64,000 nucleotides of DNA from Candidatus Avispirillum sp. (GTDB lineage: Bacteria; Bacillota; Clostridia; Oscillospirales; CAG-272): assembly GCA_045636685.1 (NCBI GenBank), contig JAZTXZ010000109.1, positions 10,381 to 74,380 of the forward strand, read 5' to 3'. The notes below the pieces were generated by a model that had not been told where the DNA came from, ran no database searches, and saw only the letters and a program-made list of their open reading frames with translations. Below are positions 35,842-52,791 of the stretch, piece after piece. Numbering within the stretch: the first letter of the stretch is position 1; every line of letters begins with the position of its first letter. A program made the position numbers and the translations under genes.

Positions 35842-36111
35842 TTGACAAAGAAAAAAAGAATGAGGCGCAATGAAAAAAAGCTGACTCGGGCAGTTGACAC
35901 CATCGCCTCAATAATCGAATCCATAGCATCGTCTATGAAGGGGGAGATAGACAGCGGAGGTAATTGGGATATCAAACAACTAAAAGAGCTGACAGGTGCC
36001 GCAAAAGAGCTTTCCGTGCTGATATGCGCGCTGAACACCGACGGTGATGAAAAGACGGGGGATCATATCACCGTTTACTTTGAAGGAGACAGCAAGGAAT
36101 GGGCACAGTGA
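35842..36111 (+). CDS. Small phage-associated protein upstream of the terminase (function unknown; small-terminase role not demonstrable)
   Basis: 89 aa. TTG start 6 nt after AAAGGAGG; 13-nt overlap with terL. Confidence 0.4.
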   Translation: MTKKKRMRRNEKKLTRAVDTIASIIESIASSMKGEIDSGGNWDIKQLKELTGAAKELSVLICALNTDGDEKTGDHITVYFEGDSKEWAQ

Positions 36112-37496
36112 CCCTTGCTCTTCCCTCGCCTTCTGAAAGGCAAAGGGAATTTCTGAGAGATCGTCACCGCTATATCGCCTTTGGCGGCGCACGGGGCGGC
36201 GGAAAAAGCTTCGCCGTTCGTATCAAGGCGGCTCTCCTTGCACTGAACTATCCTAAAATACACATTATGATCGTGCGCCGGACTTATCCCGAGCTTCGGC
36301 AAAACCATATTATCCCAATGAAAGAGCTTCTTGCGGGAGTTGCCGTATATAAAGAAACATCAAAGGATATGACATTTAATTGCGGGTCTGTCATATCATT
36401 CCGATACTGCCGCAACATTTGCGACCTTGACAAATTTCAAGGAACGGAATGCGATATTCTCTTTATCGATGAAGCTACTCAGTTTACAGAAGAGATGTAC
36501 GACAGGATCAAGGCATGCGTCAGAGGCGTTAACAGTTTCCCCAAGCGTATCTATCTGACATGTAACCCGGGCGGCCGCGGACACGGCTGGGTGAAAAGAC
36601 TGTTTATCGACGGTGCCATGAAAGCGGGAGAGAATCCCGAAGATTACTTTTTTATAAGATCTCTTGTGACTGACAATAAAGCCCTTATGCGAGATGACCC
36701 GAATTACATAAAGGCCCTTGAATCTTTGCCTCCAAAGCTGAAAAGCGCATGGCTTGACGGAAACTGGGATATTTTTGAGGGCCAGTTTTTTGAAGAGTTT
36801 TCAAATGACCCAAAACATTACCATGACAGAAAAAGCACTCACGTTATCGATCCCTTTGAGATCCCCCGCGACTGGATCATATACAGAAGCTTTGACTTCG
36901 GCTACTCCAAGCCCTTCTCCTGCGACTGGTGGGCTATTGACTATGAAGGCAGAGCCTATCTTATTTTACAGCTGTATGGCTGTAACGGCACCCCAAACGA
37001 AGGAGTCAAATGGGATCCGGACAGGATATTCCGAGAAATCCACCGCATAGAAACAGAGCACCGCTGGCTCAGGGGAAAGAACATTACCGGAGTTGCCGAC
37101 CCTTCCATCTGGGATGCTTCCCGCGGAGATGCCATCATTGAATCCGCTGACCGCAATTTCGTTCACTTCTATCCGGGAGACAACAAGCGTATCCCGGGCT
37201 GGATGCAATGCCACTACAGGTTATCCTTTGACGAAAACGGATATCCCATGGTATATTTTTTCAATACATGCCGCGATGCGGTTCGCACTCTCCCCCTTCT
37301 CACATATTCGGAAAACTCCCCAGAAGATCTGGATACTGACGGAGAAGATCATTTTGCCGATTCCTTCCGTTACTTCTGTATGAGCAGACCCGTGAAGCCG
37401 AAATATGCAGGCAATACAGACACCTTGACAGACGACCCTCTTAATCTTCTAAACGATAAGACCCTATACCCACACTACACATATTTATCGCCTTAA
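36099..37496 (+). CDS. Phage terminase large subunit
   Basis: Walker A GGARGGGKS, Walker B-like ILFIDEATQ, C-terminal nuclease-type region; 465 aa. Confidence 0.9.
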   Translation: MGTVTLALPSPSERQREFLRDRHRYIAFGGARGGGKSFAVRIKAALLALNYPKIHIMIVRRTYPELRQNHIIPMKELLAGVAVYKETSKDMTFNCGSVISFRYCRNICDLDKFQGTECDILFIDEATQFTEEMYDRIKACVRGVNSFPKRIYLTCNPGGRGHGWVKRLFIDGAMKAGENPEDYFFIRSLVTDNKALMRDDPNYIKALESLPPKLKSAWLDGNWDIFEGQFFEEFSNDPKHYHDRKSTHVIDPFEIPRDWIIYRSFDFGYSKPFSCDWWAIDYEGRAYLILQLYGCNGTPNEGVKWDPDRIFREIHRIETEHRWLRGKNITGVADPSIWDASRGDAIIESADRNFVHFYPGDNKRIPGWMQCHYRLSFDENGYPMVYFFNTCRDAVRTLPLLTYSENSPEDLDTDGEDHFADSFRYFCMSRPVKPKYAGNTDTLTDDPLNLLNDKTLYPHYTYLSP

Positions 37497-37514
37497 GGCT
37501 AAAGAAAGGACATT

Positions 37515-39131
37515 ATGAGTATTTTTAAAATCAAAGACGAAGCAAAACAAAAGCCTATCAAAAACGAGCACGCAAGAGAAGCATACGCCACTTTGCAGCG
37601 CTATAAGGCAGGAAAAGCATCTCTCGAGGCAAGGATCATTGAAAATGAGCAATGGTGGAGAATGCGCCACTACAATTTTGACGCAGGCACAACCCCTTCG
37701 GCATGGCTTTTCAATTCTATTATCAACAAGCACGCAGACGCCATGGACAACCTTCCCACCGTTGCTTGTCTGCCAAGGGAAGAAAGGGATATAAGCGCAT
37801 CAAAGCTCCTTTCAGACATTCTTCCCGTCATTCTCGAGGAAAACAAATTTGAAAACACATACTCCGAATGCTGGTATGACAAGCTTAAAAGCGGAAGCGC
37901 CTGCTACGGCGTTTTCTGGAACCGTTCTTTTGACGGAGGGCTTGGAAACATTGATATCAGACGCATTGATCTGCTTGATCTTTTTTGGGAACCGGGAATC
38001 ACAAACATTCAGGATTCAAGAAACATATTCCACGTTGAGCTTTGGGATAACGATATTCTGAAAAGCAAATATCCGCAGCTTGAAGATTGCCTTGCATCTC
38101 CCATATTCGATACCTCAAATTATATTTACGATGACGCTGTCGACACATCAAACAAAACTCATCTGATCGACTGGTACTACAAAAAGACAGTAAACGGCAG
38201 GGAAATCGTTCATTTTGCAAAGATTGCAAACGGCATTCTTCTATATGCATCGGAAAATGATGCCGTATACCGCGAAAGCGGATTTTATAATCACGGTAAA
38301 TATCCCTTTATTATCGACAAGCTGTACCCCGTTCAGGGTTCTCCCTGCGGATTCGGCATCATTGATGCCATGCGCTCTACTCAGGAGCAGATCGATACTC
38401 TCGGTTCAGCCATTATCAAAAACGCAAAAATGGCGGCAGAAAGAAGATACTTTGTCAGAGCGGACGGTTCTCTTAACGAAAAGGAATTTGCGGATTTTTC
38501 CCGTCCCTTCGTTCATTATCAGGGCTCCGGCGATCCCAATTCTTCGATCATGCCCATAAACACCCCCACACTCTCAGGTATTTATGTTTCCATACTGAAC
38601 AATAAAATCGATGAGTTGAAGGAAACAAGCGGCAATCGCGACTTTTCCCAGGGCTCCGTTACAGGAGGTGTCACAGCGGCGGCAGCGATCGCTGCTCTCC
38701 AGGAAGCGGGAAGCAAGACATCGAGAGATACTATTTCCGGCTCCTATCGCGCCTTTGAGGAGATATGCTCTATCGCTATCTGCCTTATAAGTCAGTTTTA
38801 TGAGATCCCCAGATGCTTTCGAATCACGGGGGAAGACTCTGCAATTGAGTTTATGTATGCACAAAAAAGCTGTTTCCCTCCTCTCAGTGATAAGATCCCT
38901 GTATTTGATATCAAAGTCAGAGCTCACAAAAAGTCTGCTTTTTCCAAGGCATCTGTTAATGAGCTTGCACTTGAGCTTTACAGGCTTGGGGCATTTAATC
39001 CCGAATATTCAAAGCAAGCGGAGATCCTTCTTTCTCTTATGGATTTTGAAGGAAAGGATGAGGCTCTTTCCGCTATACGCGAAAACAAAAGCCTTGCAAA
39101 TACTATAAGGACTCCTTCAGCTGTATTATGA
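37515..39131 (+). CDS. Phage portal protein
   Basis: 538 aa, directly after TerL. N-terminal YKAGKASLEARIIENEQWWRMRH is typical of SPP1-type portals as I recall them. Confidence 0.8.
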   Translation: MSIFKIKDEAKQKPIKNEHAREAYATLQRYKAGKASLEARIIENEQWWRMRHYNFDAGTTPSAWLFNSIINKHADAMDNLPTVACLPREERDISASKLLSDILPVILEENKFENTYSECWYDKLKSGSACYGVFWNRSFDGGLGNIDIRRIDLLDLFWEPGITNIQDSRNIFHVELWDNDILKSKYPQLEDCLASPIFDTSNYIYDDAVDTSNKTHLIDWYYKKTVNGREIVHFAKIANGILLYASENDAVYRESGFYNHGKYPFIIDKLYPVQGSPCGFGIIDAMRSTQEQIDTLGSAIIKNAKMAAERRYFVRADGSLNEKEFADFSRPFVHYQGSGDPNSSIMPINTPTLSGIYVSILNNKIDELKETSGNRDFSQGSVTGGVTAAAAIAALQEAGSKTSRDTISGSYRAFEEICSIAICLISQFYEIPRCFRITGEDSAIEFMYAQKSCFPPLSDKIPVFDIKVRAHKKSAFSKASVNELALELYRLGAFNPEYSKQAEILLSLMDFEGKDEALSAIRENKSLANTIRTPSAVL

Positions 39132-39454
39132 CACAGATAACATTTACACAATATTATGATACCTATCTTTTTGAATGCAAAGGTCATACGGGATATTCTT
39201 CGTGCGGCAGAGATATTCTCTGCTCTGCGGTTTCCTGCCTTTGCTATACCCTCGACAGATATCTGACGGGAGCGCGCGAAAAGGGACTAATTGAAAACTA
39301 CCGAAGTGATTTTTCCGAGGGAAACGTAAGCATATCATTTGAATATGCTGATATCAGCTTCCCATTTGCCGCTGAAGAGGCTGTGCGCGCAATTCTTGAA
39401 GGTTTTGTCCTTCTCTCGGAAAACTTTCCCGATCATATTTCAGCTGATATTTAA
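39128..39454 (+). CDS. Prp-like cysteine protease (DUF464, ribosomal-processing protease family; phage-encoded version)
   Basis: 108 aa. CKGHTGYSSCGRDILCSAVSCL matches the GH...G.D.vC..VS catalytic His/Cys pattern. 4-nt overlap with the portal gene. Confidence 0.7.
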   Translation: MTQITFTQYYDTYLFECKGHTGYSSCGRDILCSAVSCLCYTLDRYLTGAREKGLIENYRSDFSEGNVSISFEYADISFPFAAEEAVRAILEGFVLLSENFPDHISADI

Positions 39455-39480: not shown

Positions 39481-39506
39481 AAAGGCGGACTCTCGTCCGC
39501 CTTTGG
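39481..39506 (+). terminator. Hairpin after the phage module
   Basis: Stem aaaggcggac / gtccgccttt; weak T-tract. Confidence 0.5.
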
Positions 39507-39509
39507 TTA

Positions 39510-39684
39510 TTCAAATTCGGGTTTTGCGTGGGAGGTTATGTAGGGAAGCCGCTTGCTGCTCCTGCCCATCTGCACGCGAACCAAACTAACATTTACCCAT
39601 ATCGTTGCGTTTGCAGCGGATCGCCGAGGACGTCGACCCCTACAAATTCAATATCGTCTCCTCGATAAACCAGGATTTAAAATA
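39510..39684. repeat. REPIN/MITE-like element, copy 1 (~175 bp, imperfect 15-bp TIRs, inverted GTAG-headed hairpin motifs)
   Basis: Left end TTCAAATTCGGGTTT, right end AAACCAGGATTTAAA. Long blocks are identical to 54696-54891 (for example GCGAACCAAAC.AACATTTACC and ACGTCGACCCCTACAAA..TCAATATCGTCTCCTCGATAAACC). It contains GTAGGGAAGCCGCTTGCTGCTCCT at 39540-39563. Confidence 0.7.
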
Positions 39685-39813
39685 ACATAGAGATCAACTT
39701 TATACTCTGTGCATTCCTTTCTCCATTGTCAAAAAGCTATCCTTTGCATACTATGAAACTGAAGGTATAACAGTCCTTCAAAGATCTTTCAAAAGAAAGG
39801 ATAGGTATTATTT

Positions 39814-40653
39814 ATGTCTGAAAACAGACAGTGTCAGTCTTCGGCAAAAGAAATGGTATGCATTGATACATACCGCATCCTCGATTCCTGCCGCGACAAG
39901 GACTGCTTTGAAGATGTTCGCGTGTTTCTCACGGAATACGGTCAGGAGCTTATCGAACGTGCAGGCGCGGTGAGAGCAAAGTGCGCACGGATAGTATGGT
40001 CTTATATCGACATTGACCCTGTTCCCTTTAACCGCGGCTTCTATCAGCTTAACATCAAAATATATATCCGCATTATTGCAGAGGTTTGCGTTTCCCCCGG
40101 AAATATTCAGGAGATCGAGGGCATCGCAGTTGTTGAAAAAAAGGTAATCCTTTTTGGTAGTGAAGGAAACGTTTCGGTATTCAAGAGTGAAGCAGGCACA
40201 CCGTGCTCGGGATTTTGCCCTCCCTCAGACCGTTGCAGCTGCAAGAAGGGCTCAAATCTCCCCGTTGCCGTTCTCGAGACAGTTGACCCCATTATTCTCG
40301 ATTCCAAGGTAGTTTGCGCGCCTCAGAAGATCCGCTGCTGTTGCTACTGTGAAGATATTCCCGAATCGGTATGCTGTACGATAAACGGCGGCTCTATCTG
40401 TGACTCTGATGGAGATAAACTTGTGGTTACTCTTGGACTATTCTCCATCATTCGCATCGAGCGGCCCGCCCAGTATCTCATACAGGCAACAGAATACTGC
40501 GTTCCCGAAAAGGAATGCGTTGAAGCCAAAGATAATGACCCCTGCAAACTTTTCAATTCAATGGCCTTCCCTATCGGAGAATTCTGCCCTCCATCTGCAG
40601 GATCGCTGATTCATCACACCGGTGATTGTGGTGGCAAATGCAGTTGTAAATGA
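39814..40653 (+). CDS. Cysteine-rich hypothetical protein (about 25 Cys in 279 aa)
   Basis: ORF with RBS AAAGGATAGG. Cys clusters CSGFCPPSDRCSC, CCCYC, VCC and CGGKCSCK. No signal peptide or TM helix is evident. Confidence 0.6.
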   Translation: MSENRQCQSSAKEMVCIDTYRILDSCRDKDCFEDVRVFLTEYGQELIERAGAVRAKCARIVWSYIDIDPVPFNRGFYQLNIKIYIRIIAEVCVSPGNIQEIEGIAVVEKKVILFGSEGNVSVFKSEAGTPCSGFCPPSDRCSCKKGSNLPVAVLETVDPIILDSKVVCAPQKIRCCCYCEDIPESVCCTINGGSICDSDGDKLVVTLGLFSIIRIERPAQYLIQATEYCVPEKECVEAKDNDPCKLFNSMAFPIGEFCPPSAGSLIHHTGDCGGKCSCK

Positions 40654-40682: not shown

Positions 40683-40828
40683 ATTTATGAGCACATCGTG
40701 CGTTAGAATACCCTCAGAACAACAATGATGTGATCGCTTCTAACTTAGTAAAACCGATCATAGCTCGCGGACCATTCCCCACGACAAGGACCTTGCCGTC
40801 GGGGGCCCCTATGGTAGGCGAATTTAGC

Positions 40829-40858
40829 TAAAAAAAAAGCACCCCGAAGGGTGCTTTT
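40829..40858 (-). terminator. Terminator after the TIM-barrel gene
   Basis: Stem agcaccc / gggtgct flanked by long A/T runs. Confidence 0.75.
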
Positions 40859-40860
40859 TT

Positions 40861-41835
40861 TCACGCCCAAGCCATGGTTGTGGGCTTAGGCTCGTGGATG
40901 ATGCAGGGTGCGAGGCACTCGATTGCCTTGCAAAGACCCTCGTCGATGGACATAAGGCTGTCCTCGTGCTCGATGGACATAACCTTATCGTAACCAACAA
41001 GACGAAGAGCGGAGCAGATGTCCTTCCACCACTTCTGGTCGTGGCCGTAACCTACTGCACGGAATACCCATGCGCGGTTGAGCTCGTCACCGTAGTGCTT
41101 TGTATCAAGAACACCGTTTACGCTTGTGTTAATATCGTCGATCTTATTATCCTTAGCATGGAAGTGATAGATAGCATCGCCAAGGTAACGGATAGCCGCT
41201 ACGGGATCGATGCCCTGCCATACAAGGTGAGAGGGGTCGAAGTTTGCACCGAGAACGGGGCTAACTGCATTTCTGAGTCTCATAAGAGTCTCGGGGTTGT
41301 ATACACAGAAGCCGGGGTGCATCTCGAATGCGATCTTTGTTACGCCGTGAGCCTCTGCAAATGCAGCAGTCTCCTTCCAGTAAGGAATGAGAACCTCGTT
41401 CCACTGGTAATCAAGAACGCCAAGGAAGTCATCGGGCCAGGGGCAAGTTACCCAGTTGGGTGTCTTATCCTCTGCGCATCCGCCGGGACAGCCGGAGAAT
41501 GTGATGATAGTATCAACGCCTACCTTCTCTGCGAGAAGAACTGCGTTTACAAAGTCCTTATGGAAGGACTCAGCGATAGCCTTATCGGGGTGAACTGCGT
41601 TGCCGTGGCAAGCAAAAGCAGCAAGCTCGATATCATACTTCTTGAATGTATCAACGAACTCCTGAAGAGCCTTCTCATCTGCGAGAAGCTTCTCGGGGTC
41701 GCAATGAGCCTTGCCGGGGAAACCGCCGGCACCGATCTCAACTGCCTCAACGCCGAGAGCCTTGAGCTTTGCAAGGGTCTCATCAAGTGTGAGGTTTGCA
41801 TAAAGGTTTGCAAGTACGCAAAGTTTCATAATCAA
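40861..41835 (-). CDS. Sugar-phosphate isomerase/epimerase (xylose-isomerase-like TIM barrel)
   Basis: 324 aa. Typical AP-endonuclease-2/TIM-barrel pattern (GVEAVEIG, FEMHPG, SIEHED). Confidence 0.85.
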   Translation of the reverse strand: MIMKLCVLANLYANLTLDETLAKLKALGVEAVEIGAGGFPGKAHCDPEKLLADEKALQEFVDTFKKYDIELAAFACHGNAVHPDKAIAESFHKDFVNAVLLAEKVGVDTIITFSGCPGGCAEDKTPNWVTCPWPDDFLGVLDYQWNEVLIPYWKETAAFAEAHGVTKIAFEMHPGFCVYNPETLMRLRNAVSPVLGANFDPSHLVWQGIDPVAAIRYLGDAIYHFHAKDNKIDDINTSVNGVLDTKHYGDELNRAWVFRAVGYGHDQKWWKDICSALRLVGYDKVMSIEHEDSLMSIDEGLCKAIECLAPCIIHEPKPTTMAWA

Positions 41836-41901
41836 AAGAACCTTTCAATAAAAGTTAGACCCGTGTACCCGAGGGCACACGGGTGCTGAATTAGTTTTTT
41901 A

Positions 41902-42990
41902 TCAGTTGAAGTAAACCGCTTTACCTGTCTTGGCACTTTCATAAATGCCCTCGAGGATCTGAGTTACAACGTATGCCTGCTCGGGAAGTACAAGGGGCTC
42001 TGTATCGTCGATGATGCAGTGGATCCACTGATAAGCCTCTCTCTCGTGAGGAGCGCCACCTGCGTTACCGGAGTAGAAGTCTACGCCGCCTGCACCAAGC
42101 TCGATAGTCTTTGTGAACATTCTGTTGTTGTCAACGCCGTTGATGCGGAGACCGTCAACCATGTCAGCACCGCCCTGAGTACCGCAAAGAGTTGTCTTTG
42201 CCTCTCTTACGTCAAGAGAGTTGAGCGCCCATGCAGACTCGAGAACGATAGTAGCACCGTTTTCCATTACAACGAAGCCGAATGCAGAATCCTCAACTGT
42301 GAACTCATCAGGGTTCCAGTCGCCAACTGCGTTAGCTGTGTTTGTCTGGTAACGGAACTTATGGTAAGTTGTACCAACACAGTACTTGGGCTTATAGTTG
42401 TTCATTGTCCAGAGAGTGAGGTCGAGAGCGTGTGTTCCGATATCGATGAGGGGACCGCCGCCCTGCTCGTCTTCCTTAAGGAATACGCCCCATGTGGGAA
42501 CGAAACGACGACGGATAGCGTGAGCCTTTGCATAATAGATCTCACCGAGATCGCCGCGATCGCAGATATCCTTAAGATAGAGAGAATCGGGTCTCTGACG
42601 GTTCTGATAGCCGATAGAGAGCTTCTTGCCTGTTCTCTTAGCAGCCTCAAGCATCTTGAGAGCCTCTTCGGAGTTGATAGCCATGGGCTTCTCGCACATT
42701 ACGTGCTTGCCTGCCTCAAGAGCATCAACTGTGATAAAGCTGTGAGAAATGTTGGGAGTACAAACGTGTACAACGTCGATAGATTCGTCAGCGAGAAGGT
42801 CCTTGTAGTTCTCATAGAACTTAGCGTCTGCAGTACCGTACTGCTTGCAAGCAGCCTCAGCTCTTTCAACGATGATATCGCAGAAAGCAACCATCTCTAC
42901 CTCAGGTACAGACTTAAGACCGGGAAGGTGCTTACCGTTAGCAATACCGCCGCAACCGATAATACCAACTCTTACTTTTCCGTTTTCCAT
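41902..42990 (-). CDS. Gfo/Idh/MocA-family NAD(P)-dependent oxidoreductase
   Basis: N-terminal Rossmann VRVGIIGCGGIANGKH and the family motif EKPMA. Confidence 0.9.
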   Translation of the reverse strand: MENGKVRVGIIGCGGIANGKHLPGLKSVPEVEMVAFCDIIVERAEAACKQYGTADAKFYENYKDLLADESIDVVHVCTPNISHSFITVDALEAGKHVMCEKPMAINSEEALKMLEAAKRTGKKLSIGYQNRQRPDSLYLKDICDRGDLGEIYYAKAHAIRRRFVPTWGVFLKEDEQGGGPLIDIGTHALDLTLWTMNNYKPKYCVGTTYHKFRYQTNTANAVGDWNPDEFTVEDSAFGFVVMENGATIVLESAWALNSLDVREAKTTLCGTQGGADMVDGLRINGVDNNRMFTKTIELGAGGVDFYSGNAGGAPHEREAYQWIHCIIDDTEPLVLPEQAYVVTQILEGIYESAKTGKAVYFN

Positions 42991-43231
42991 TGGGGTAATC
43001 CTCCGTATTATATAAATTTATTATTTCATTGTAGAAATTGCATAATTCCAACTCTATTTTATAGTAACAAATCAATGATTTCAAGGCTTTTCGGTATTTT
43101 TTTCAATATATTTCCAATATCGTTATTTCCAACAAAACATATATACCTTATTTTGTGCTTTTGACTATTGGTTTATGCGATAAAACTCGGCAAAAAGGCA
43201 TCCAACGACCCATAATTTACCGCCAAACATT

Positions 43232-43258
43232 GTAGGGGCGACCATTGGTCGTCCCTAC
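43232..43258. repeat. REP-like palindrome GTAGGGGCGACC-ATT-GGTCGTCCCTAC
   Basis: 27-nt near-perfect palindrome with GTAG/CTAC ends. It lies 19 nt downstream of the GNAT stop and about 470 nt from the RAYT-like gene. Confidence 0.6.
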
Positions 43259-43276
43259 GTTATCCGATACAATAAC

Positions 43277-43738
43277 TTATTCTGTATAAGCGGATATATT
43301 TATTTCTTTTCTATATATTTTCTCAACACTCCCCCAAGGTGCTACTTTTCTGTCTATCACAACAAATCCGTATTTTTCATAAAGATTTTCATGATCGCTA
43401 ATAAGGTAAATGTCTGAAAATCCTACGTTCTTCAAATACCGTTCCGCGTATTGGATCATCAACTGACTCAAACGGTTACCTCTGTATTTTTGATCAACGA
43501 AAATGTAACTGACATACGGAGTATAGGGAACATCGGGAATACAATCATTTTTTTGAACCGTACAAAATCCGCATATATCTTCATTTTCAGTTACTACAAT
43601 CACTTTCTCCCAATCTGAAAACTGATTTTCTTCCATCAAAAAAGCGAGATTTTTACCTGCTCTCCACGAACAATTCTCAGCATAATTCTTTGCAATTTGC
43701 CAGAAAGGGTCGGTTGAATCTATTAATCTAAATTTCAA
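43277..43738 (-). CDS. GNAT-family N-acetyltransferase
   Basis: 153 aa. Acetyl-CoA binding pattern VDQKYRGNRLSQLMIQYAERYLKNVG. Confidence 0.8.
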   Translation of the reverse strand: MKFRLIDSTDPFWQIAKNYAENCSWRAGKNLAFLMEENQFSDWEKVIVVTENEDICGFCTVQKNDCIPDVPYTPYVSYIFVDQKYRGNRLSQLMIQYAERYLKNVGFSDIYLISDHENLYEKYGFVVIDRKVAPWGSVEKIYRKEINISAYTE

Positions 43739-44330
43739 TATCAGTCTTTTCTCCCAAATTCATATTTTTGTAATACCACCGCATCGGATTTTCGTGGATG
43801 TATTTAACATGCTCCTCGTAATCCTCGCGATTGCGGATAACGTGCTCAGAAAAGGAACGTTGAAACATTTTATCGATTCCAAATTTCTTTTTACATTCAC
43901 GGGACATCAAAGATTTAAATGCACGAACTACATCATGCAGCGTAGGGGAGCCGCTTGCTGCTCCCGACTCCATGCGTAAAAATATAAGTAAATGAATATG
44001 GTCGGGCATAATAACGTAATTCTTTATTTTTACGTTATTATATCGATTTTCTAAATTCAGGATCTGTTCTTCTGCGATTTTGCCAATGGGGGTTAACCTT
44101 GATTTATAGTTGTTTGAAAATGAAGATTGTGCCTCTGAAATTTCGTTTAAATCAAGACGTTCGTTCTCGGGAGCAGCAAGCGGCTCCCCTACGATGTTTG
44201 ACAAAATCCGTTTTCTATCCTGCGTACATATCGTTACAAAATATACGCCGGTTTTGCTGTAATCATAATTTTTGAGATGCGTTGCTTTTCTCTCAGGTAA
44301 TTTGTTTTCCATATCTATCACCTTATTCAA
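43728..44330 (-). CDS. IS200-like Y1 (HUH) transposase family protein, REP-associated tyrosine transposase (RAYT)-like
   Basis: 200 aa. YFVTICTQDR N-terminal strand, HUH motif IMPDHIHLLI, C-terminal catalytic Tyr context EHVKYIHENPMRW. No IS ends or second IS gene are present. Confidence 0.8.
   Translation of the reverse strand: MNKVIDMENKLPERKATHLKNYDYSKTGVYFVTICTQDRKRILSNIVGEPLAAPENERLDLNEISEAQSSFSNNYKSRLTPIGKIAEEQILNLENRYNNVKIKNYVIMPDHIHLLIFLRMESGAASGSPTLHDVVRAFKSLMSRECKKKFGIDKMFQRSFSEHVIRNREDYEEHVKYIHENPMRWYYKNMNLGEKTDIEI
43942..43965 (+). repeat. GTAG-headed hairpin 24-mer inside the RAYT-like CDS (copy A)
   Basis: GTAGGGGAGCCGCTTGCTGCTCCC (GTAG + GGGAGC/GCTCCC stem). Read on the coding strand it gives SGAASGSPT. 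Confidence 0.7.
44169..44192 (-). repeat. GTAG-headed hairpin 24-mer inside the RAYT-like CDS (copy B, inverted)
   Basis: Exact reverse complement of 43942-43965 (24/24). In the coding frame it reads GTA GGG GAG CCG CTT GCT GCT CCC = VGEPLAAP. Confidence 0.7.
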
Positions 44331-44361
44331 AAAAAACCGCAGGGTTTCCCCTGCGGTTTTT
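44329..44361 (-). terminator. Terminator after the BNR-protein pair
   Basis: Stem accgcaggg / ccctgcggt flanked by A/T runs. Confidence 0.75.
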
Positions 44362-44365
44362 AAGA

Positions 44366-45487
44366 TTACTTATTCAATTTCCACTTTGTGGAAAGGATGC
44401 TGGTGTGCCAGTCCTCGGGGAGGGCCTGATAATAAATTGTATAGAGAGATCCGTCGGGAAGCTCTACTGTTGCGGGGTAGCCCATATCGCGCTGACCCTC
44501 GTAATTGATATTATCGTTAAGGATATAATCCTCTTCCCATGTTTCGCCGTTATCGTAGCTTACCACTGCTCTTTCGGAGATCTGTCCCCAGGTACGGCAG
44601 GAATAGCTGCAGATAACAGCACCGGAAGAATGCACCATAAAGTGAGGAGGCATTCCGTCAACACCGATGCACTTGGGAACGCTCCATGTCTTACCCTTAT
44701 CATCGGAATATGTTACGTATACGGAATCGGAGGGTGCATCCTTTCTGCCGTTTACGCGGATACCGCCGAGGATTCTGCCGTTAGGAAGCTCGATCTGGTG
44801 AGCCTCGTACATCTGACCGTAGTCGCAGTCCTCGCCCATGGGAACCTGACCTGCATATTCCCATGTTGCGCCGTCATCTGTACTTGTATAGCAAACGAAA
44901 TCGTTATCGAAAGCATAATCAGGCTCGAATCTCTTGCCCATATAAACGAGAGTACCATCCTTGCAGCGGCAGGGGCCGTGAGGAGAATGAACGTTGAGTC
45001 TTACTCTTTCACCCCATGTTACGCCGTTATCTGTGGAAAGGCTTACGTATGAGCCCTTCTCCTCGTTATACTCCTCGTCTGTGAGAGTATGCCAATACTT
45101 GCTCCAGCCATCCATCATTGCCTTATCGCCGGGGTTGAGCCATGTCTGCTCCTGCATATGATCGAGGTAATTATCGTAATTATCGGTATACCAGGACATG
45201 AGCATCTTTCCGCCGCCGAGGTTAAGGATTCCGGGGTCGCGGTCGTCAATTCTTGAATCGTATACCACGATAGGGGGAGTCCATGTCTTACCCTCGTTGA
45301 AGCTGACCCACATGATGTTCTTTCCTGCGTGGTCAACGTGGGACATACGAAGGCCTGATGCTACTGCATAAAGCCAGCCGTTATCGCCCATAGCAAGAGA
45401 GGGCCATGCGTTATACTTGAAGGGATTATGATCGTTTGTATATCTGTGTACTATGCCGTGCTCGGCTTCGGGTCTGATTATTTTCAT
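44366..45487 (-). CDS. BNR/Asp-box repeat protein, sialidase-like beta-propeller (no signal peptide), paralog 2
   Basis: Five SxDxGxTW-type Asp boxes (SFNEGKTW, STDNGVTW, STDDGATW, SDDKGKTW, SYDNGETW). Start set at ATG 45487 (MKIIRPE), homologous to the paralog's start and forming an ATGA overlap with the upstream stop. Confidence 0.8.
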   Translation of the reverse strand: MKIIRPEAEHGIVHRYTNDHNPFKYNAWPSLAMGDNGWLYAVASGLRMSHVDHAGKNIMWVSFNEGKTWTPPIVVYDSRIDDRDPGILNLGGGKMLMSWYTDNYDNYLDHMQEQTWLNPGDKAMMDGWSKYWHTLTDEEYNEEKGSYVSLSTDNGVTWGERVRLNVHSPHGPCRCKDGTLVYMGKRFEPDYAFDNDFVCYTSTDDGATWEYAGQVPMGEDCDYGQMYEAHQIELPNGRILGGIRVNGRKDAPSDSVYVTYSDDKGKTWSVPKCIGVDGMPPHFMVHSSGAVICSYSCRTWGQISERAVVSYDNGETWEEDYILNDNINYEGQRDMGYPATVELPDGSLYTIYYQALPEDWHTSILSTKWKLNK

Positions 45488-46605
45488 TTGTTTAAACTCC
45501 ATTTCGTATAAAGAATACTTGTATGCCAGTCATCGGGAAGTGCCTGATAATAAAGGGTGAGAAGTGAGCCGTCGGAAAGCTCAACAGTTGCGGGGTAGCC
45601 CATATCGTGCTGCTTATTTCTGTTGATTCTCTCATCAAGAACGTAATCCTCGGACCATGTCTCGCCGTTATCGTAGCTGACAACTGCACGCTCGGACATA
45701 GTTTCCCAGTTTCTGCAGCTATAGCTGAGAATGAGAGCGCCTGAGGAATGGATCATGAAATGAGGGGGCATTCCGTCGATTCCCATGCATTTAGGAGTAG
45801 ACCATGTTACGCCCTTATCATCGGAATATGTAAGATATGTGGAATCTGTGGGTGCCTCCTGTCTTCCGTTTACGCGGATAGCGCCGAGAAGGCGTCCGTT
45901 TGGAAGCTCGATGATATGAGGCTCGTGCACCTGATTGGGAGCAAGGTTTTCAAAATCGGGAACCTTTCCGCAGAACTCCCAATTCTTTCCGCCATCAGTG
46001 CTCTTCCAACACTCAACGTCGGGGCCGTAGGGATGCTCATAGGTCATTGTTTTGCCGAGATAGTAAATAGTTCCGTCCTTTGCAACACAGGGACCGTGGG
46101 GGCTTGTTACGGGAACTCTGATGTTCTCGCCCCATGTTACACCGTAATCATCGGAAAGCTTAACAAAGCTTCCCCACTCCTCCTTTGCCTTTTCGGGAGG
46201 AAGAGTTTTCCAATATCCGCTCCAGCCGCTGATCATTGCCTTATCGGAGGGATGCATCCAATCCTGATCCTGCATATGGTCAAGATGGTTTTCATACACA
46301 CTTGTGAACCATGACATAAGCATTTTGCCCTCACCGAGGTAGAGGATACCTGTATCGCGGTCATCAAAATTGGAATCGTTTACGATAATGGGGGCAGTCC
46401 AGCTTTCGCCGTCGTTAAAGCTGACCCACATTACGTTCTTACCGCAGGGGTCAACGTGGGAAAGTCTGAGGCCTGATGCAGTTGCATAAAGGATACCGCG
46501 ATCGTCCTTACAAACTGTAGGCCATGCATTATATCTGAAGCAGTTATGCTCTGTAGGGTATCTGTGAACTATGCCGTGCTTCTTTACAGGATCGATTATC
46601 TTCAT
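45484..46605 (-). CDS. BNR/Asp-box repeat protein, sialidase-like beta-propeller (no signal peptide), paralog 1
   Basis: Same architecture. Start set at ATG 46605 (MKIIDPV), preceded by GAGGAAAGGAA. The ORF-track extension to 46725 was rejected. Confidence 0.8.
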   Translation of the reverse strand: MKIIDPVKKHGIVHRYPTEHNCFRYNAWPTVCKDDRGILYATASGLRLSHVDPCGKNVMWVSFNDGESWTAPIIVNDSNFDDRDTGILYLGEGKMLMSWFTSVYENHLDHMQDQDWMHPSDKAMISGWSGYWKTLPPEKAKEEWGSFVKLSDDYGVTWGENIRVPVTSPHGPCVAKDGTIYYLGKTMTYEHPYGPDVECWKSTDGGKNWEFCGKVPDFENLAPNQVHEPHIIELPNGRLLGAIRVNGRQEAPTDSTYLTYSDDKGVTWSTPKCMGIDGMPPHFMIHSSGALILSYSCRNWETMSERAVVSYDNGETWSEDYVLDERINRNKQHDMGYPATVELSDGSLLTLYYQALPDDWHTSILYTKWSLNK

Positions 46606-46825
46606 AAATCCTATTCCTTTCCTCTGTTTGCGCATAGCGCGAAGGTCGTCTGTTTTTTTCGTACAACGTTTTTGCAAAGCAAAATAATACAAGGTAAGTT
46701 TACCATTTTTGCCTTGTCTTGTCAATGTTTATGGGGAAAGTAAAATTTAGCAAACGCGAAACCAAACAGATCAAAATATTTGTTTTTGCATCATAGTCTT
46801 CCGATCAACTATAAATTTTAACAAA

Positions 46826-46862
46826 GCAAAAAGCTGCTGCACAATGTGCAGCAGCTTTCTTC
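46826..46862 (-). terminator. Terminator after cpsB
   Basis: Stem aagctgctgcac / gtgcagcagctt with an A-run (T-run on the minus strand). Confidence 0.7.
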
Positions 46863-46873
46863 TAATATTGAAT

Positions 46874-47575
46874 TTATTGTATCGAAATTGCATTTTCAAG
46901 AAGATACTGTGTTTCGCTTGTAACGTCAAGTCCTGCTTTTTCAAGGCGCTTCACAAGGCTGAGAAGATTTTTAACAGCCTTTTTATCCGCTCCGTGGATA
47001 TCGCTGCCAACGGCAATCACAGGAAGATTTTCAATGATCCATTTCACCTTCTTGCGTCCCTTAAAGGTTGCCTGAGTTTCACCATTTATCTGATAAAGGA
47101 CATCACATTCATTACAAAGCCTTATAATATCGGCAGTTGGATATCTGTCTATATGCGCCATCACAACTGTCATTCCCATACGTGATATCCTCGAAACTGC
47201 CTCTATATGGCTATCATTCCAGGAGGAAAATGGCATTTCCAACAGGATCACATCCGTTCCCTCAATGCAAAGCCGTCCGAAATCTTGCATATGATCTATT
47301 CCCGGGCAGACAAGAACTTCTGCGCCGAGATAAACCTTAGGATTAACGTCAGAAACAATACGGGAAAGCTCCCCTACAGCGGCACTTCTTCTTTCAAGGA
47401 AGCTATCAACACTATCCTTCTGCGGATAGAAATGGGGCGTAGCAACAACTGATTTTACACCCGCGCTTTTAAGAAGAAAAAGCTGCTCCTCAGAGTTTTT
47501 TACACTTTTTGATCCATGATCGGCACCGGGAAGGATATGTGCATGAAAATCTATGATAAAGTCACTTTTTTTCAT
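46874..47575 (-). CDS. cpsB: PHP-family protein-tyrosine phosphatase (CpsB/YwqE type)
   Basis: DFHAHILPGADHGS N-terminal motif; 233 aa; lies downstream of the BY-kinase. Confidence 0.85.
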   Translation of the reverse strand: MKKSDFIIDFHAHILPGADHGSKSVKNSEEQLFLLKSAGVKSVVATPHFYPQKDSVDSFLERRSAAVGELSRIVSDVNPKVYLGAEVLVCPGIDHMQDFGRLCIEGTDVILLEMPFSSWNDSHIEAVSRISRMGMTVVMAHIDRYPTADIIRLCNECDVLYQINGETQATFKGRKKVKWIIENLPVIAVGSDIHGADKKAVKNLLSLVKRLEKAGLDVTSETQYLLENAISIQ

Positions 47576-47609
47576 ACGTCGGCTCCTTTATATTTGCCGG
47601 ATTTGGGGC

Positions 47610-48419
47610 TCACTCACCCTTATCTTCTTTATGGCCATAATGACTGTAGCCATAACCATAGTTGCCATATCCGTAACCGTAACCGTATTTCTTTCCGTAT
47701 CTGCCATACTTACCGTATTTTCCGTACTTGCCATATCTGCCGTAGCGTCCGTATCCGCCGGATTTCGGATCAACGTCATTAAGTACAAGTCCTACGATTT
47801 TGGCATCCATCTGCTCCATGGTGGAGAGGCCGTGGCTGAGAGATTTTGTATCATCAGCGCGGCTTCTTACAACATAAAGGTAACCTGTTACAAGCTCGTT
47901 TATTACAACTGCATCGGTTACGATACCTATGGGGGGAAGGTCTATGAAAATAACATCAAAGTGCTGTTTCATAAACTCAATAAACTTGCCCATTCTTGCT
48001 CCCGCGAGAAGCTCTGCAGGATTAGGAGGAGTACCTCCCGCTGTTATAATAGACAAATTCTGATACTTTGTTTTCTTTACGTACTTATCTACGCCGCTGT
48101 CTGCACTTGCGAGAAGCTCACTGATACCCTCGCCCTTTTCTATTTCAAATATCTTATGAATAACGGAGCTGCGAAGGTCGCAATCAATAAGAAGCACTTT
48201 CTTTTCAAGCTGTGCGAAAGATACTGCAAGGTTTGAAATAAGAAGACTTTTTCCGCTATGTGCAAAGGTACTGGTTATACCATATACGGGACATTTTTCG
48301 CCCTTTGAGGTATAGAAAAGGTTGGTTCTGAGCATTTTAAATGCTTCATTGATAGCAAAGGAGGATGCCTCTGACAAAAGCTTTCCTTTATAGCTGCTTA
48401 CTACAGGTTCATTTGTCAT
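47610..48419 (-). CDS. cpsD: Bacterial tyrosine kinase (CpsD/YwqD type) with an expanded C-terminal Tyr cluster
   Basis: Walker A context TSTFAHSGKS, Walker A'-like LLIDCDLR, Walker B-like VIFIDLPP. The C-terminal 52 aa contain 15 Tyr. Confidence 0.9.
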   Translation of the reverse strand: MTNEPVVSSYKGKLLSEASSFAINEAFKMLRTNLFYTSKGEKCPVYGITSTFAHSGKSLLISNLAVSFAQLEKKVLLIDCDLRSSVIHKIFEIEKGEGISELLASADSGVDKYVKKTKYQNLSIITAGGTPPNPAELLAGARMGKFIEFMKQHFDVIFIDLPPIGIVTDAVVINELVTGYLYVVRSRADDTKSLSHGLSTMEQMDAKIVGLVLNDVDPKSGGYGRYGRYGKYGKYGKYGRYGKKYGYGYGYGNYGYGYSHYGHKEDKGE

Positions 48420-49159
48420 TTATTTTTGCTCCTTTCCCTTTTAAATCCGATACCGGCTGAGCTTTTTGCAGGCTGATCAACTATGATGGAAGGAATAAGG
48501 CCTACAACGGGATATCCGAACTTATCCTTAACATCTTCTTCCGTATAAATTGTATTATCAAGAACCTCTCTGAGGAAGAACACAAGAAAGGCTATAGCAA
48601 AGCCTATTATTCCGCCGATAAATGTATTGATGAGCAAGCTGGGAGAATCGGGCTCAACGGGCTTTCTCGGATGGTCCATCTGGGATACGTCACCCTTATT
48701 GATGATCTCGGGAATATCTGTGGGAATTATCTCATAAAACGCATTGGCAAGAGCATGTGCATCCTCGGGATTTTTATGACTTACAGATATATAAAACGCC
48801 TCTGTTCCCGAATATGTTCCTGCTGTTATGCTGCTCTTGAGCTTTGAAGCAGTTATATTAACGCCTGATGCCTCTGCTACCTTTTCCAAAAGTGACGTAC
48901 TGTTTTTTACAATTACGATAGATGATTCTGCAAGGCTTTTTGATGCGCTCATATCCTGCGAAGATACACTCGACATCTGATCTGACGTATTATTTACATA
49001 AAACTTTGCTGTTGAGGAATAGATAGGTGTTATCAAAAACATTGTTACCAGAGCAAACACAAGTGCAACGGCAACTCCGATTGCAAATATGAGTACTATC
49101 TTTCTTCTCAGAACAAAGAGAAGAGCCTGAAGGCTTGACTGGCTTTCATTTCTTTCCAC
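48416..49159 (-). CDS. cpsC: Wzz/CpsC-type chain-length determinant (BY-kinase transmembrane activator)
   Basis: 247 aa. Two TM helices flank a periplasmic-type domain. PIYSSTAKFYV motif. 4-nt overlap with the kinase gene. Confidence 0.85.
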   Translation of the reverse strand: MERNESQSSLQALLFVLRRKIVLIFAIGVAVALVFALVTMFLITPIYSSTAKFYVNNTSDQMSSVSSQDMSASKSLAESSIVIVKNSTSLLEKVAEASGVNITASKLKSSITAGTYSGTEAFYISVSHKNPEDAHALANAFYEIIPTDIPEIINKGDVSQMDHPRKPVEPDSPSLLINTFIGGIIGFAIAFLVFFLREVLDNTIYTEEDVKDKFGYPVVGLIPSIIVDQPAKSSAGIGFKRERSKNK

Positions 49160-49189
49160 TTAACCGTACTCCTTTTCATTTTTTGCTTT

Positions 49190-50284
49190 TCAGAGATATT
49201 TGGCAACTATTACCTTCATCTCTTCCATTTTTTTGTCCATATCACGAAGCAGAGCAAGCTGATTTCTTGCGCGGTCGCGGTTATGGAACGGATAATCTAT
49301 ATGGTAGTATACATCTCCGTTGAGATAATCTCCAAGAAAACGTATAGCTGTTTCGAGGGTCATAAGATATGCGCCCATAGGAAGACCCATGACCTCATCC
49401 TCCGTCATGGAAGCTCTGAGTTCGCCGAGAAATCCCTTCACAAAAACATCGAACTTCTCAAGATCAAGGCTGACCTTTGACAGATCTGTCTCATCTTCCA
49501 TTGCAGTTGATGCTCCGAAGCGGATAGCATCTCCGAAATCATAAAGAATGCTTCCGGGCATTACGATATCAAGATCGATAACACATATTCCCTCGTCGGT
49601 ATGCTTGTCCATAAGCACATTATTTATCTTCGTGTCATTATGGGTAACGCAAAGTCTGAACTTCCCGTCACGAATACCGTCTGTAATGTATGTACAAAGA
49701 GGCTCCTTGGAAAGCGCAAAGGCGATTTCCTCAGCAAGCTCCCCTGCTCTTCCCATTTTATCCTCGCTGACTGCCGCTTTGAACTGATCCATTCGGCTCT
49801 TTGAGTTGTGAAAATTGGGAATGGTTTCATAAAGGGTCTCTGCGGGATAGTCTGCAAGCTGGCTGGCAAATTTACCGAAAGCCACAGCACTCTTATAGAA
49901 AAGGTCACAGCTCTCGGGATAGTCATAAGATATAACATCGGGAATCTCAAGGAAAGCTCTCCAGTAGCATCCGTCAGGATCTACAAAATAATCTTTCCCA
50001 TCCTTTGTTCCTACAACTGTTCTGACCTCCCTGAGAGGGTCTCCACCTGCTTCTTCGACTTTTTTCGCAATATGAGAACAAACTCCCTTGATATTCGCCA
50101 TGAGCTTATCGGGCTCAGGGAATATCTCCGTATTGATCTTCTGGAGGATATAGCCGGGGTTTCCCACTCCGCAATCAATAAAAAAGGTATCGCTTATAAG
50201 TCCTGCATTACATCTTTTATATTCAACGGGAGGTGCGGCAAAATCAAATGCCGCACCCGCCATATCGAGATAACTTACTCCCAT
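49190..50284 (-). CDS. N-acetylhexosamine 1-kinase-like phosphotransferase (APH fold), paralog 2
   Basis: VTHNDTKINNVLMD, IDLDIVMPGSILYDFGDAIRFGAST and EDETDLSKV closely resemble my recollection of Bifidobacterium NahK/LnpB. Confidence 0.75.
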   Translation of the reverse strand: MGVSYLDMAGAAFDFAAPPVEYKRCNAGLISDTFFIDCGVGNPGYILQKINTEIFPEPDKLMANIKGVCSHIAKKVEEAGGDPLREVRTVVGTKDGKDYFVDPDGCYWRAFLEIPDVISYDYPESCDLFYKSAVAFGKFASQLADYPAETLYETIPNFHNSKSRMDQFKAAVSEDKMGRAGELAEEIAFALSKEPLCTYITDGIRDGKFRLCVTHNDTKINNVLMDKHTDEGICVIDLDIVMPGSILYDFGDAIRFGASTAMEDETDLSKVSLDLEKFDVFVKGFLGELRASMTEDEVMGLPMGAYLMTLETAIRFLGDYLNGDVYYHIDYPFHNRDRARNQLALLRDMDKKMEEMKVIVAKYL

Positions 50285-50320
50285 CTGATCTCCCCGGGCG
50301 TGTTGCCCTCACAATATGAA

Positions 50321-51427
50321 TTAGAGATACTTCTTTACGATTTCCTGCATCTGGGGCATCTTCTCATCCATGTCTGCGATGAGCTTGAGCTGGTTTCTTG
50401 CGCGGTCCTTATTCTGACCTTCATAGCGTGTATGGAAATATACGTCGCCGTTGAGGTAGTCGCCAAGGAAGCGGATACCTGTTTCAAGAGTCATAAGGTA
50501 TGCACCCATGGGGAGAGAAAGGATCTCATCCTCTGTCATTGAGTCGTGAAGCTCGCCGACAAATCCCTTTACGTATGTCTCGAACATTTCAAGATCCATA
50601 TATACCTTATCAAGGTCTGTTTCGTCCTCAGCAGCGCTGGATGCACCAAATCTGATAGCATCGCCGAAATCATAAAGAACAGAACCGGGCATTACTGTAT
50701 CAAGGTCGATAATGCAAACACCCTCACCTGTCTCAGCGTCCATGAGAACGTTATTGAGCTTTGTATCGTTATGTGTTACGCAGAGCTTGCAGCGTCCATC
50801 AGCAAGTCTGTCAAGAATATAAGAGCAAAGAGGCTCCTTGGAAAGTGCAAACTCGATCTCGGGACCCATCTCGCATGCGCGGCCCATCTTATCCTCAGCC
50901 ACAGCTGCCTTGAAGTCGTTCATACGGCTTACGGAGTTATGGAAGTTGGGAATAGTCTCATAAAGAGTCTCTGCGGGGTAGTCTGCAAGCTGGTTGAAGA
51001 ACTTACCGAATGCAACTGCGCTCTTATAGAAAAGCTCGGGGGAGTCGGGAGAGTTGTAGGATACAACATTATTGATCTCAAGGAATGATCTCCAGTAGCA
51101 TCCGTCAGGGTCTACAAAATAGTCTCCGCCATCCTTTGTGAAGATGATCTTTCTTACCTCACGATCAGGATTACCGCCTGCTGCCTCTACCTTTTTTGCA
51201 ACATGAGAGCAAACTCCCTTCATATTTGCCATAAGCTTTATGGGATCTTTGAAGATAGTTGTATTTACTCTCTGGAGAAGATAACGGGGATTTCCCTCTC
51301 CGCAGTCAACAAAGTAAGTGTCATTGATGTGTCCGATATCGCATCTTTCGTAGTTTACGGGTTCTGCGGCAAAAGCAAATGCTCTTCCTGCTTCCTCAAG
51401 ATATTTTACTGCCATTATAGCCTCCAA
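50321..51427 (-). CDS. N-acetylhexosamine 1-kinase-like phosphotransferase (APH fold), paralog 1
   Basis: VTHNDTKLNNVLMD, IDLDTVMPGSVLYDFGDAIRFGASS. Roughly 70% identical to the neighbouring paralog by eye. Confidence 0.75.
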   Translation of the reverse strand: MEAIMAVKYLEEAGRAFAFAAEPVNYERCDIGHINDTYFVDCGEGNPRYLLQRVNTTIFKDPIKLMANMKGVCSHVAKKVEAAGGNPDREVRKIIFTKDGGDYFVDPDGCYWRSFLEINNVVSYNSPDSPELFYKSAVAFGKFFNQLADYPAETLYETIPNFHNSVSRMNDFKAAVAEDKMGRACEMGPEIEFALSKEPLCSYILDRLADGRCKLCVTHNDTKLNNVLMDAETGEGVCIIDLDTVMPGSVLYDFGDAIRFGASSAAEDETDLDKVYMDLEMFETYVKGFVGELHDSMTEDEILSLPMGAYLMTLETGIRFLGDYLNGDVYFHTRYEGQNKDRARNQLKLIADMDEKMPQMQEIVKKYL

Positions 51428-51596
51428 ATAATAATAATTTTCAAATTTAAAACATCAAAACTGCAAAATAGACGCAGTTCGTCATGATATTACAGTTCAT
51501 ATTATTATACCCTTTATCCCCTTTTATGTCAAGGGCTTTGTACAAATTATATGAATATGCCCTCTCTTTATTTACAATCGGCACAAAATGAAATTC

Positions 51597-51625
51597 TTGA
51601 CATTAAAACTTGCAAGGTGTATAAT
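51597..51625 (+). promoter_or_regulatory. Consensus sigma-70 promoter of serC-serA
   Basis: TTGACA (51597-51602), 17-nt spacer, TATAAT (51620-51625). Confidence 0.65.
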
Positions 51626-51681
51626 CAATAATATCATTTTATGCATTTTCAACAACATGCATACAGAAAGGAACGACAACT

Positions 51682-52767: not shown

Positions 52768-52791
52768 AACTAAAAAATCAGGTATACCACT

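Follow-up and report, generated by a model that had tools for sequence, protein, structure and literature searches.

Two probable copies of a REPIN-type palindromic repeat in an uncultured Clostridia lineage and their sequence link to hairpins within RAYT genes

Repetitive extragenic palindromes (REPs), arranged as hairpin-forming doublets (REPINs) or as bacterial interspersed mosaic elements (BIMEs) and linked to REP-associated tyrosine transposases (RAYTs), have been described in Pseudomonas, Enterobacteria, Neisseria and Stenotrophomonas (Bertels & Rainey, 2011, PMC3116915; PMC5581495; PMC3479197). For E. coli, binding of the TnpA-REP protein to REP hairpins has been described, together with a requirement for the GTAG motif (PMC3479197; summarised in PMC3733652). 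A survey of GTAG-type REPs (Di Nocera et al., 2013, PMC3733652), in which no Firmicutes are listed (0 mentions), reports REP dimers in longer palindromes, hybrid dimers and repeats that overlap the ends of RAYT genes. For Clostridia the literature reports RAYTs of 'Group 1' only, and these show weak association with repeats. REPIN-RAYT systems have been studied almost only in Proteobacteria. Here, a 64-kb stretch of contig JAZTXZ010000109.1 from Candidatus Avispirillum sp. (the window) was analysed, which contains two copies of an intergenic palindromic element, c1 (39510-39684) and c2 (54696-54891), and a RAYT-like gene (43728-44312). Both copies are probably old, partly decayed representatives of a non-autonomous repeat of the REPIN type, belonging to an uncultured lineage of Clostridia and handled by RAYT.

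The copy c1 (39510 to 39681 or 39684) can be aligned with c2 end to end. From ATCTGCA to the right end 103 of the 114 aligned bases are identical and c2 contains a 22-nt insertion, whereas the left third is far more diverged than the rest (41/54 identical). An earlier description of the window made from its letters alone (the sequence-only reading) had reported long blocks common to c1 and c2; these blocks (GCGAACCAAACNAACATTTACC, GACGTCGACCCCTACAAA and TCAATATCGTCTCCTCGATAAACC) were each found exactly twice in the 64 kb, against 0.00-0.02 occurrences in shuffles, and the similarity is not that of a shared terminator. Low-stringency blastn gave no third copy in the window.

With its extended imperfect inverted ends included, c1 occupies 39506-39686 (+ strand). 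Its left terminal inverted repeat (TTCAAATTCGGGTTT, 39510-39524, +) corresponds by homology to GATAAATCGGAGTTT in the metagenome copies, the partner arm showing compensatory changes, and is matched on the right by AAACCAGGATTTAAA (39667-39681, +); the imperfect inverted repeat first described at these ends was recovered. Between them lie a left REP consisting of GTAG and the hairpin GGAAGCCGCTTGCTGCTCCT (39540-39563, +), of the same class as the internal hairpins of the window's own RAYT gene, a spacer hairpin CTGCACGCGAAC...GTTGCGTTTGCAG (39570-39616, +) and a right REP (39618-39643, -), the canonical REP of the family. The minus strand of the right REP reads GTAGGGGTCGACGTCCTCGGCGATCC (on the plus strand ...GACCCCTAC) and is 25/26 identical to Avispirillum copies and to a hairpin in a RAYT fragment at locus L050. 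The two oppositely oriented GTAG motifs of the sequence-only reading are therefore present in c1 as described. The organization of c2 is the same. The whole element with its extended inverted ends spans 54690-54897 (+) and comprises a left terminal inverted repeat TTCAAATTCGGTTTT (54696-54710, +), a left GTAG hairpin GTAGAGGCGAATTCCATATCCGCC with a third, different stem sequence (54728-54751, +), the spacer hairpin (54758-54804, +), a canonical-class right REP, the loop of which contains a nested palindrome (54806-54851, -), and a right terminal inverted repeat AAACCCGAATTTGAA (54877-54891, +). The nested palindrome is perfect (GTAGGAATGGAACATTCCTAC, 54815-54835), makes up most of the length by which c2 exceeds c1 and is the variant found in the left REP of copies L002, L030 and L034. 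The extended inverted arms are 20 nt long and 70% complementary in c1, and 25 nt long and 84% complementary in c2. In both copies the GTAG-headed hairpins face inward, one on each side and in opposite orientation, but the left and right REPs are of different classes: spacer, right REP and right arm are those of the family, and the left REPs are two other GTAG hairpins. On this alignment c1 and c2 are best described as old, partly decayed hybrid copies, and the combination of two REP classes in c1 suggests module exchange between such elements.

Two intrinsic-terminator-like hairpins (54636-54667 and 54920-54947) flank c2. The palindrome was also seen to run 12-17 nt past the family-conserved ends into copy-specific flanks, in the window (54672-54683 / 54890-54901) and in copy L027 (1760-2002); insertion into a pre-existing hairpin, 'perfecting' by template switching or, in L027, a fold-back assembly artefact are possible causes.

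Further copies were obtained from an exact-pattern scan of 185,579 species-representative genomes and from a separate metagenome scan. The genome scan gave four matches in one Candidatus Avispirillum sp. metagenome-assembled genome (MAG; Clostridia), 4/4 interrupted by a contig end, and the metagenome scan gave 11 matches in the JAEIGA01 assembly, eight of them interrupted by a contig end and three full length. The remaining matches of these scans (Nitrososphaera, actinobacteria and others) had only the search pattern in common and were set aside as unrelated; viral contigs contained no match for two patterns. The family is thus known from three sources, with two copies in the window, at least four in the Avispirillum MAG and at least 11 in the JAEIGA01 metagenome. 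All copies are intergenic, the flanks differ for every copy, and several copies are positioned a few bases past a terminator-like hairpin.

The JAEIGA01 copies are near-identical to one another and retain the intact design. This consists of GATAAATCGGAGTTT, an arm of ~25 nt, GTAG followed by GGGTCGACGTCCTCGACGACCC, a spacer of ~50 nt with its own stem (CTGCACACGAAC...GTTGCGTTTGCAG), the inverted REP, an arm and the terminal repeat, giving an intact unit of about 185-200 nt. The best-preserved copies are near-perfect palindromes of ~185 nt with a terminal inverted repeat of 15 nt. Because the unit is made up of mirror-image halves, one strand could fold into a hairpin of ~80 bp, and such a fold was calculated for L013 as single-stranded DNA (-60.8 kcal/mol, z -12). 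In the terminal stem both sides have changed between the window and the metagenome lineage (AAATTCGGG/CCCGAATTT versus AAATCGGAG/CTCCGATTT), i.e. the changes are compensatory. The REPs of the copies have a GTAG head followed by a GC-rich imperfect palindrome and stand in inverted orientation; as in GTAG-tagged REPs, they are imperfect GC-rich palindromes of 20-40 nt with GT[AG]G at one end (GTAG+GGGTCGACGTCCTCGGCGACCC, GTAG+GGAAGCCGCTTGCTGCTCC). The alignment and folds of 17 copies gave a REP doublet that forms a hairpin. By these features the unit is a head-to-head dimer of GTAG-REPs, that is a REPIN, set within longer palindromic arms. A solitary second right-end fragment (ATCTCCTCGATAAATACAAATTCG) was observed ~60 nt downstream of one copy (L009, ~5662-5692, - strand).

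The open reading frame (ORF) at 43728-44312 (- strand, 194 aa) is predicted to encode a Y1 HUH protein of the RAYT type, with the HUH motif PDHIHLL and the motif EDY..YIHENP. Its catalytic tyrosine is presumed from an alignment to E. coli RayT. The protein matches NCBIfam REP_Tyr_transpos with an E value of 2.8e-22 and 79.2 bits, just below the cut-off of 80, and Pfam Y1_Tnp with a score above the cut-off (E value 6.8e-6). An identical protein (P0001) and 1078 homologues, mostly unnamed, are present in the protein database; the named homologues are annotated to Clostridia, some of them as 'REP element-mobilizing transposase RayT' (JGI). Two GTAG hairpins lie within the ORF. The first, on the sense strand of the gene (44169-44192, -), encodes VGEPLAAP, and the second is antisense to the gene (43942-43965, +), its complement encoding GAASGSPT. 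Together these two internal copies of GTAGGGGAGCCGCTTGCTGCTCCC, which stand in inverted orientation, make up a pair of 35-nt arms with 91% complementarity. The left REP of c1 is identical to each of them at 22 of 24 positions, with 0 such matches expected by chance, as had been proposed for the forward motif of c1; the left REP can accordingly be assigned, by sequence, to the class of this RAYT gene 4 kb away. In orthologues at 67-70% amino-acid identity the 24-mer is unchanged in 3/4 further instances while the surrounding codons drift. In a homologue at 59% identity both internal copies read GTAGGGGAGGGGCTTGCTCCTCCC, so the two have changed together.

The canonical REP was connected to a RAYT class by translation. 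The family REP, translated in two frames, gave the predicted motifs VGVDVLGDP and GSPRTSTPT, and the protein database was searched with a 44-residue chimera bearing the second motif only. One of the two matches, P0242, contains both predicted motifs, flanking the HUH motif. In the DNA encoding P0242 (L050, 790-815 and 959-984) these correspond to GTAGGGGTCGACGTCCTCGGCGACCC and its exact reverse complement, and this internal hairpin is identical to the REP of the Avispirillum copies and 25/26 identical to the right REP of c1. With P0242 as query, 886 relatives were obtained from 1.84 billion representatives. One of them, P0250, is a full-length RAYT, and its gene (in L051) agrees with the REP of copy L002 in 27/27 positions. 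The internal hairpins in L050 and L051 are identical to the family REP, so the family REP is a hairpin that one RAYT class carries in its own gene. An association with a cognate RAYT bearing the same REP is found in these two loci and, at 22/24, between the left REP of c1 and the RAYT of the window.

The same arrangement extends across the superfamily. An inverted pair of class-specific GTAG hairpins brackets the HUH-coding core within the ORF of the window RAYT and of the RAYT genes in L036, L040, L048, L050 and L051. In 150 of 190 usable proteins the two motifs are compatible as reverse-complement translations at 6-7 of 7 positions, and among 11 distinct motif classes cognate pairs reach a compatibility of 96%, against 28% when non-cognate motifs are paired; VGEGLAPP/GGASPSPT, VGVDVLGDP/GSPRTSTPT and VGADSISAR/RADMESAPT are examples. 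The genes of this large Clostridial RAYT superfamily each have their own class-specific pair of GTAG-REPs, kept at the DNA level and encoding VGxxxxxP/GxxxxxPT. A broader proposal is put forward tentatively and at somewhat less than even odds, namely that these hairpins are recognition sites of the enzyme, used for self-regulation or delimiting a REPIN-like gene-core cassette; elements of the c1/c2 type would then be dispersed substrates of the same code. The REPIN/RAYT literature consulted gave no account of REPs that co-vary as a pair within the ORFs of RAYT genes.

Several features of individual RAYT loci were recorded. L050 contains a RAYT fragment without its first ~25 codons (735-1003), in which the RAYT match ends exactly after the CTAC of hairpin 2, and ~30 nt past the fragment another RAYT gene starts (MNNEKEFPKRKPTRLKGFDYNTT, 1019-1088); this arrangement suggests breakage or rejoining at the GTAG foot. 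Among two sets of RAYT homologues (P0030, P0259, P0260 and P0283; P0245, P0246 and P0308), several have a tandem duplication of the hairpin-encoded motif and others a frameshifted C-terminus downstream of motif 2, which gives the intragenic hairpins the look of hot spots, either of rearrangement or of assembly error. An extragenic cluster of GTAG REPs of at least three stem classes lies in L051 (60-300); near the contig end of the same locus (8300-8400) a GTAGGGG head is followed by tandem GGATGCGG(G/A) repeats. In L048 an extragenic GTAG hairpin (GTAGGGCGGGGGCTTGCTCCCGCC, 8803-8826), located 44 nt upstream of the gene preceding a RAYT homologue, has the same loop as the internal hairpins of that RAYT and a different stem.

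The family shares with Proteobacterial REPINs and BIMEs two inverted REP hairpins around a spacer, the GT[AG]G head, an extragenic location, multiple copies, the potential to form one long hairpin and a sequence link to a single Y1 HUH gene of the RAYT type. REPINs are over-represented within a genome, at tens to hundreds of extragenic copies. The clostridial family differs in its host, an uncultured Clostridia lineage, and in that the cognate REPs lie within the RAYT ORF instead of flanking it. The clostridial unit is also about twice the length of a REPIN because it continues beyond the GTAG heads in arms of ~40 nt, which bear terminal inverted repeats of their own. Also similar are GTAG-15 of Anabaena variabilis and the 'TIRYT' genes, which have repeated terminal inverted repeats (PMC3733652); outward GTAG heads, a conserved spacer with a stem-loop, a dimer within a longer palindrome and hybrid dimers are common to both. 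GTAG-15 and TIRYT, however, belong to another phylum and have other sequences, and their flanking repeats overlap the ends of RAYT genes, whereas the co-varying pair described here is deep in the ORF. The IS200/IS605 group and its miniature derivatives, the palindrome-associated transposable elements (PATEs), resemble the family in a presumed Y1 HUH enzyme, in hairpin substrates with a short 5' foot and in the lack of target duplication. Their hairpins have the same orientation on one strand and there are no terminal inverted repeats, in contrast to the inverted hairpins and palindromic unit found here, where moreover the RAYT gene is outside the repeated unit. Assignment to an IS200/IS605 miniature element (PATE) was rejected because the hairpins are mutually inverted and terminal inverted repeats are present. 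ERIC/IRU of enterobacteria and MITEs of the Correia, RUP and BOX types are comparable in that they, too, are imperfect palindromes between genes, 100-200 nt long and frequently close to gene ends, with internal insertions that vary but have fixed positions; they lack GTAG-REP modules and a RAYT link; Correia and RUP in addition have TA target duplications and DDE partners, none of which were seen for the c1/c2 family. On these comparisons the family would be a repeat of the REPIN/RAYT kind in Clostridia and a variant that is new relative to the described Proteobacterial systems.

Presence/absence polymorphism between relatives was found for both copies. Four contigs of a related species (L041-L044, 74% amino-acid identity), reached through a protein search with the pseudouridine synthase upstream of c2, do not contain the element at the c2 site: the same convergent gene pair is 59 nt apart with one bidirectional terminator, compared with 316 nt in the window. 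The closest syntenic relative found, L040 (GCA_045545335.1; 77-86% DNA identity over 40761-54386 of the window), lacks the whole region that bears c1. The possibility that c1 and c2 are the only copies, syntenic and conserved in all relatives, is contradicted by these loci and by the further copies in unrelated contexts. Of the two outcomes suggested for a comparison of strains, presence or absence was observed at the c2 site and target-site duplications were not: by inspection only, no direct repeats flank the five full-length copies, and no target-site duplication or constant target motif was seen at the ends of full-length or partial copies.

A related difference was found downstream of the RAYT-GNAT gene pair, where the window has a solo palindrome GTAGGGGCGACCATTGGTCGTCCCTAC (GTAG...CTAC, 43232-43258). 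At the corresponding site L040 contains, 40 nt past the gene pair, two inverted copies of that REP around a spacer of ~125 nt (11041-11215), and the spacer, beginning with CACATCTGCACAAGAACCAAAAG, has its homologue in the central part of c1 and c2. The pair of states looks like collapse or expansion between self-complementary REPs. No RAYT with the motifs VGATIGRP/GRPMVAPT, predicted from the 43232 palindrome, was present among 272 fetched proteins. At the synteny break in L040 (13690-14030) more than 12 AGCTAAAT(T)/AATTTAGCT motifs occur in both orientations, and the window keeps one motif of this type (40823-40832); the array may be iteron-like or centromere-like.

The mechanism that we propose for the dispersal of the unit is modelled on E. 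coli TnpA-REP and on IS200/IS605 TnpA. The REP hairpins would fold on single-stranded DNA, and a RAYT (Y1 HUH) of the matching class would bind the hairpin and its GTAG foot and then cut and rejoin the DNA, so that the unit is excised or copied to other intergenic sites without target duplication. For the GTAGGGGTCGACGTCCTCGGCGACCC REP the matching enzyme would be, by sequence, a RAYT of the VGVDVLGDP/GSPRTSTPT class. Catalysis by RAYT, the single-stranded intermediate and any present activity in this genome are taken over from these models and are accordingly put conditionally.

Several points weigh against this explanation. The source provides only two copies in 64 kb, with ~90% identity in the core and far lower identity in the left part, and recent movement in the source genome is therefore not supported. 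The fold of c1 is no better than that of shuffled sequences (z -1.3 as RNA and -1.1 as DNA), and with its left and right REPs of different classes c1 is not an intact element. At the empty c2 site the divergence of the flanks is too high to place junctions, exact ends or a target. No RAYT gene was found beside any copy by tblastn in the loci searched, no RAYT of the class matching the right-hand REPs was seen in the window, and the REP and its cognate RAYT stem from different assemblies. In Y1 HUH transposition as it is known, terminal inverted repeats play no part, and IS200/IS605-type substrates need none; on the biochemistry of any Clostridial RAYT nothing was found in the REPIN/RAYT literature.

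Three other explanations were considered. The element could be a classical miniature inverted-repeat transposable element (MITE), that is an internally deleted insertion sequence (IS) moved in trans by a DDE transposase which recognises the 15-nt terminal repeats, the GTAG hairpins being incidental. The terminal inverted repeats are indeed present and are kept by compensatory change, and the size of 175-205 nt, the intergenic location and the dispersal in multiple copies fit as well; but the five full-length copies lack direct repeats by inspection, the examined parts of the window contain no other sequence with these ends and no transposase besides the RAYT-like gene, and neither the window nor the collected loci contain a parent IS. 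Phage and plasmid collections likewise contained no element-like sequence by blastn, conservation is highest in the inner REPs and the spacer and lower at the ends (a comparison biased by the search patterns), and the inner hairpins are exactly those inside RAYT genes. A classical MITE is accordingly considered very improbable. Of the original designation of c1 as REPIN/MITE-like, the REPIN part is borne out by the copies elsewhere and the RAYT-linked REPs, and the classical MITE part is not, there being no target-site duplication and no matching transposase. Alternatively, c1 and c2 might be a structured RNA element, either the gene for a small RNA or a hairpin in 3'-UTRs with a stabilising or terminating effect on transcripts, which became multi-copy through usefulness instead of mobility. 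This would agree with the RNA fold of c2 (z -5.8) and its position between two terminator-like hairpins, with the several copies that follow the terminator of a gene in the same orientation, and with the action of Proteobacterial REPs on mRNA (PMC3733652). Yet c2 folds about as well as DNA (z -5.3) and on its other strand (z -5.0), and the pair table shows a balance of G-U and A-C mismatches; with the two strands folding about equally well, there is no preference for either. The copies have no uniform orientation with respect to neighbouring genes (a weak test, since ORFs were called crudely from stop to stop), and c1 and c2 have no consistent promoter or terminator of their own. Against Rfam neither copy gave a match at the gathering threshold (whole window) or at permissive thresholds, where both copies at E values up to 10 gave only sub-threshold, terminator-driven hits. 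A copy number that breaks assemblies and the identity of the REPs with RAYT-internal hairpins would be left unexplained, and we regard an RNA element as unlikely.

The family could also have arisen with no dedicated enzyme, through host processes that act on palindromes, such as template switching, gene conversion or recombination of one REP hairpin with another; the hairpins of RAYT genes would then be similar by common descent only. Such processes would account for the mosaic arms, the nested REP variant being a left-hand one in L002, L030 and L034 and a right-hand one in c2, for the three different left hairpins reported for c1 and c2, for the palindromes of L027 and c2 that extend into copy-specific flanks, and for the solo palindrome versus dimer at 43232, which fits a deletion between self-complementary REPs. 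They remodel existing copies without bringing them to numerous unlinked positions between genes, and the near-identical JAEIGA01 copies indicate recent multiplication, which argues against host processes alone; there is little probability that these suffice. A non-autonomous REPIN-type repeat handled by RAYT is thus preferred.

The left end of c1 lies shortly past a block of phage genes encoding TerL (36099-37496), portal (37515-39131) and a Prp-like peptidase (39128-39454). The element begins 56 nt past the last stop codon of this block and 5 nt past the hairpin 39481-39504 that comes after the Prp-like gene; the position given in the sequence-only reading is correct and the distance (4 nt) is not. 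The block was compared with 80 related viral contigs, several of ~40 kb, which all share the portal by construction. TerL is encoded in 73 of them and the Prp-like gene in 26, whereas neither the next ORF (39814-40653) nor any of the three ORFs upstream has a homologue in the 80 contigs, and the element itself is found in 0/80 of these loci. As no neighbouring window genes examined are shared by the 80 contigs, the TerL-portal-Prp block (36099-39454) is an orphan remnant. The idea that c1 marks the point where the prophage was cut holds insofar as c1 sits where the phage homology stops; nothing ties the element to causing or marking the truncation. The ORF 39814-40653 (279 aa), directly downstream of c1 in the region absent from L040, has no Pfam, PHROG or NCBIfam match. 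Elsewhere in the window a T-box leader (10937-11166, 107.3 bits) is the sole Rfam match at the gathering score.

It follows for annotation that c1 and c2 should be entered as repeat elements and not as regulatory regions or RNA genes. A REPIN-like family in uncultured gut Clostridia that breaks metagenome assemblies matters for the quality of MAGs. A prediction made from element DNA retrieved the matching RAYT class, which amounts to a computational pairing of enzyme and substrate and provides oligonucleotides for biochemical tests. Because the hairpin is written twice into the ORF, the REP class can be read off the RAYT protein. If the broader proposal for the superfamily is true, the pairing of REPs and RAYTs could be read from protein sequence, and the arrangement would represent a new REPIN-RAYT architecture in Gram-positive anaerobes.

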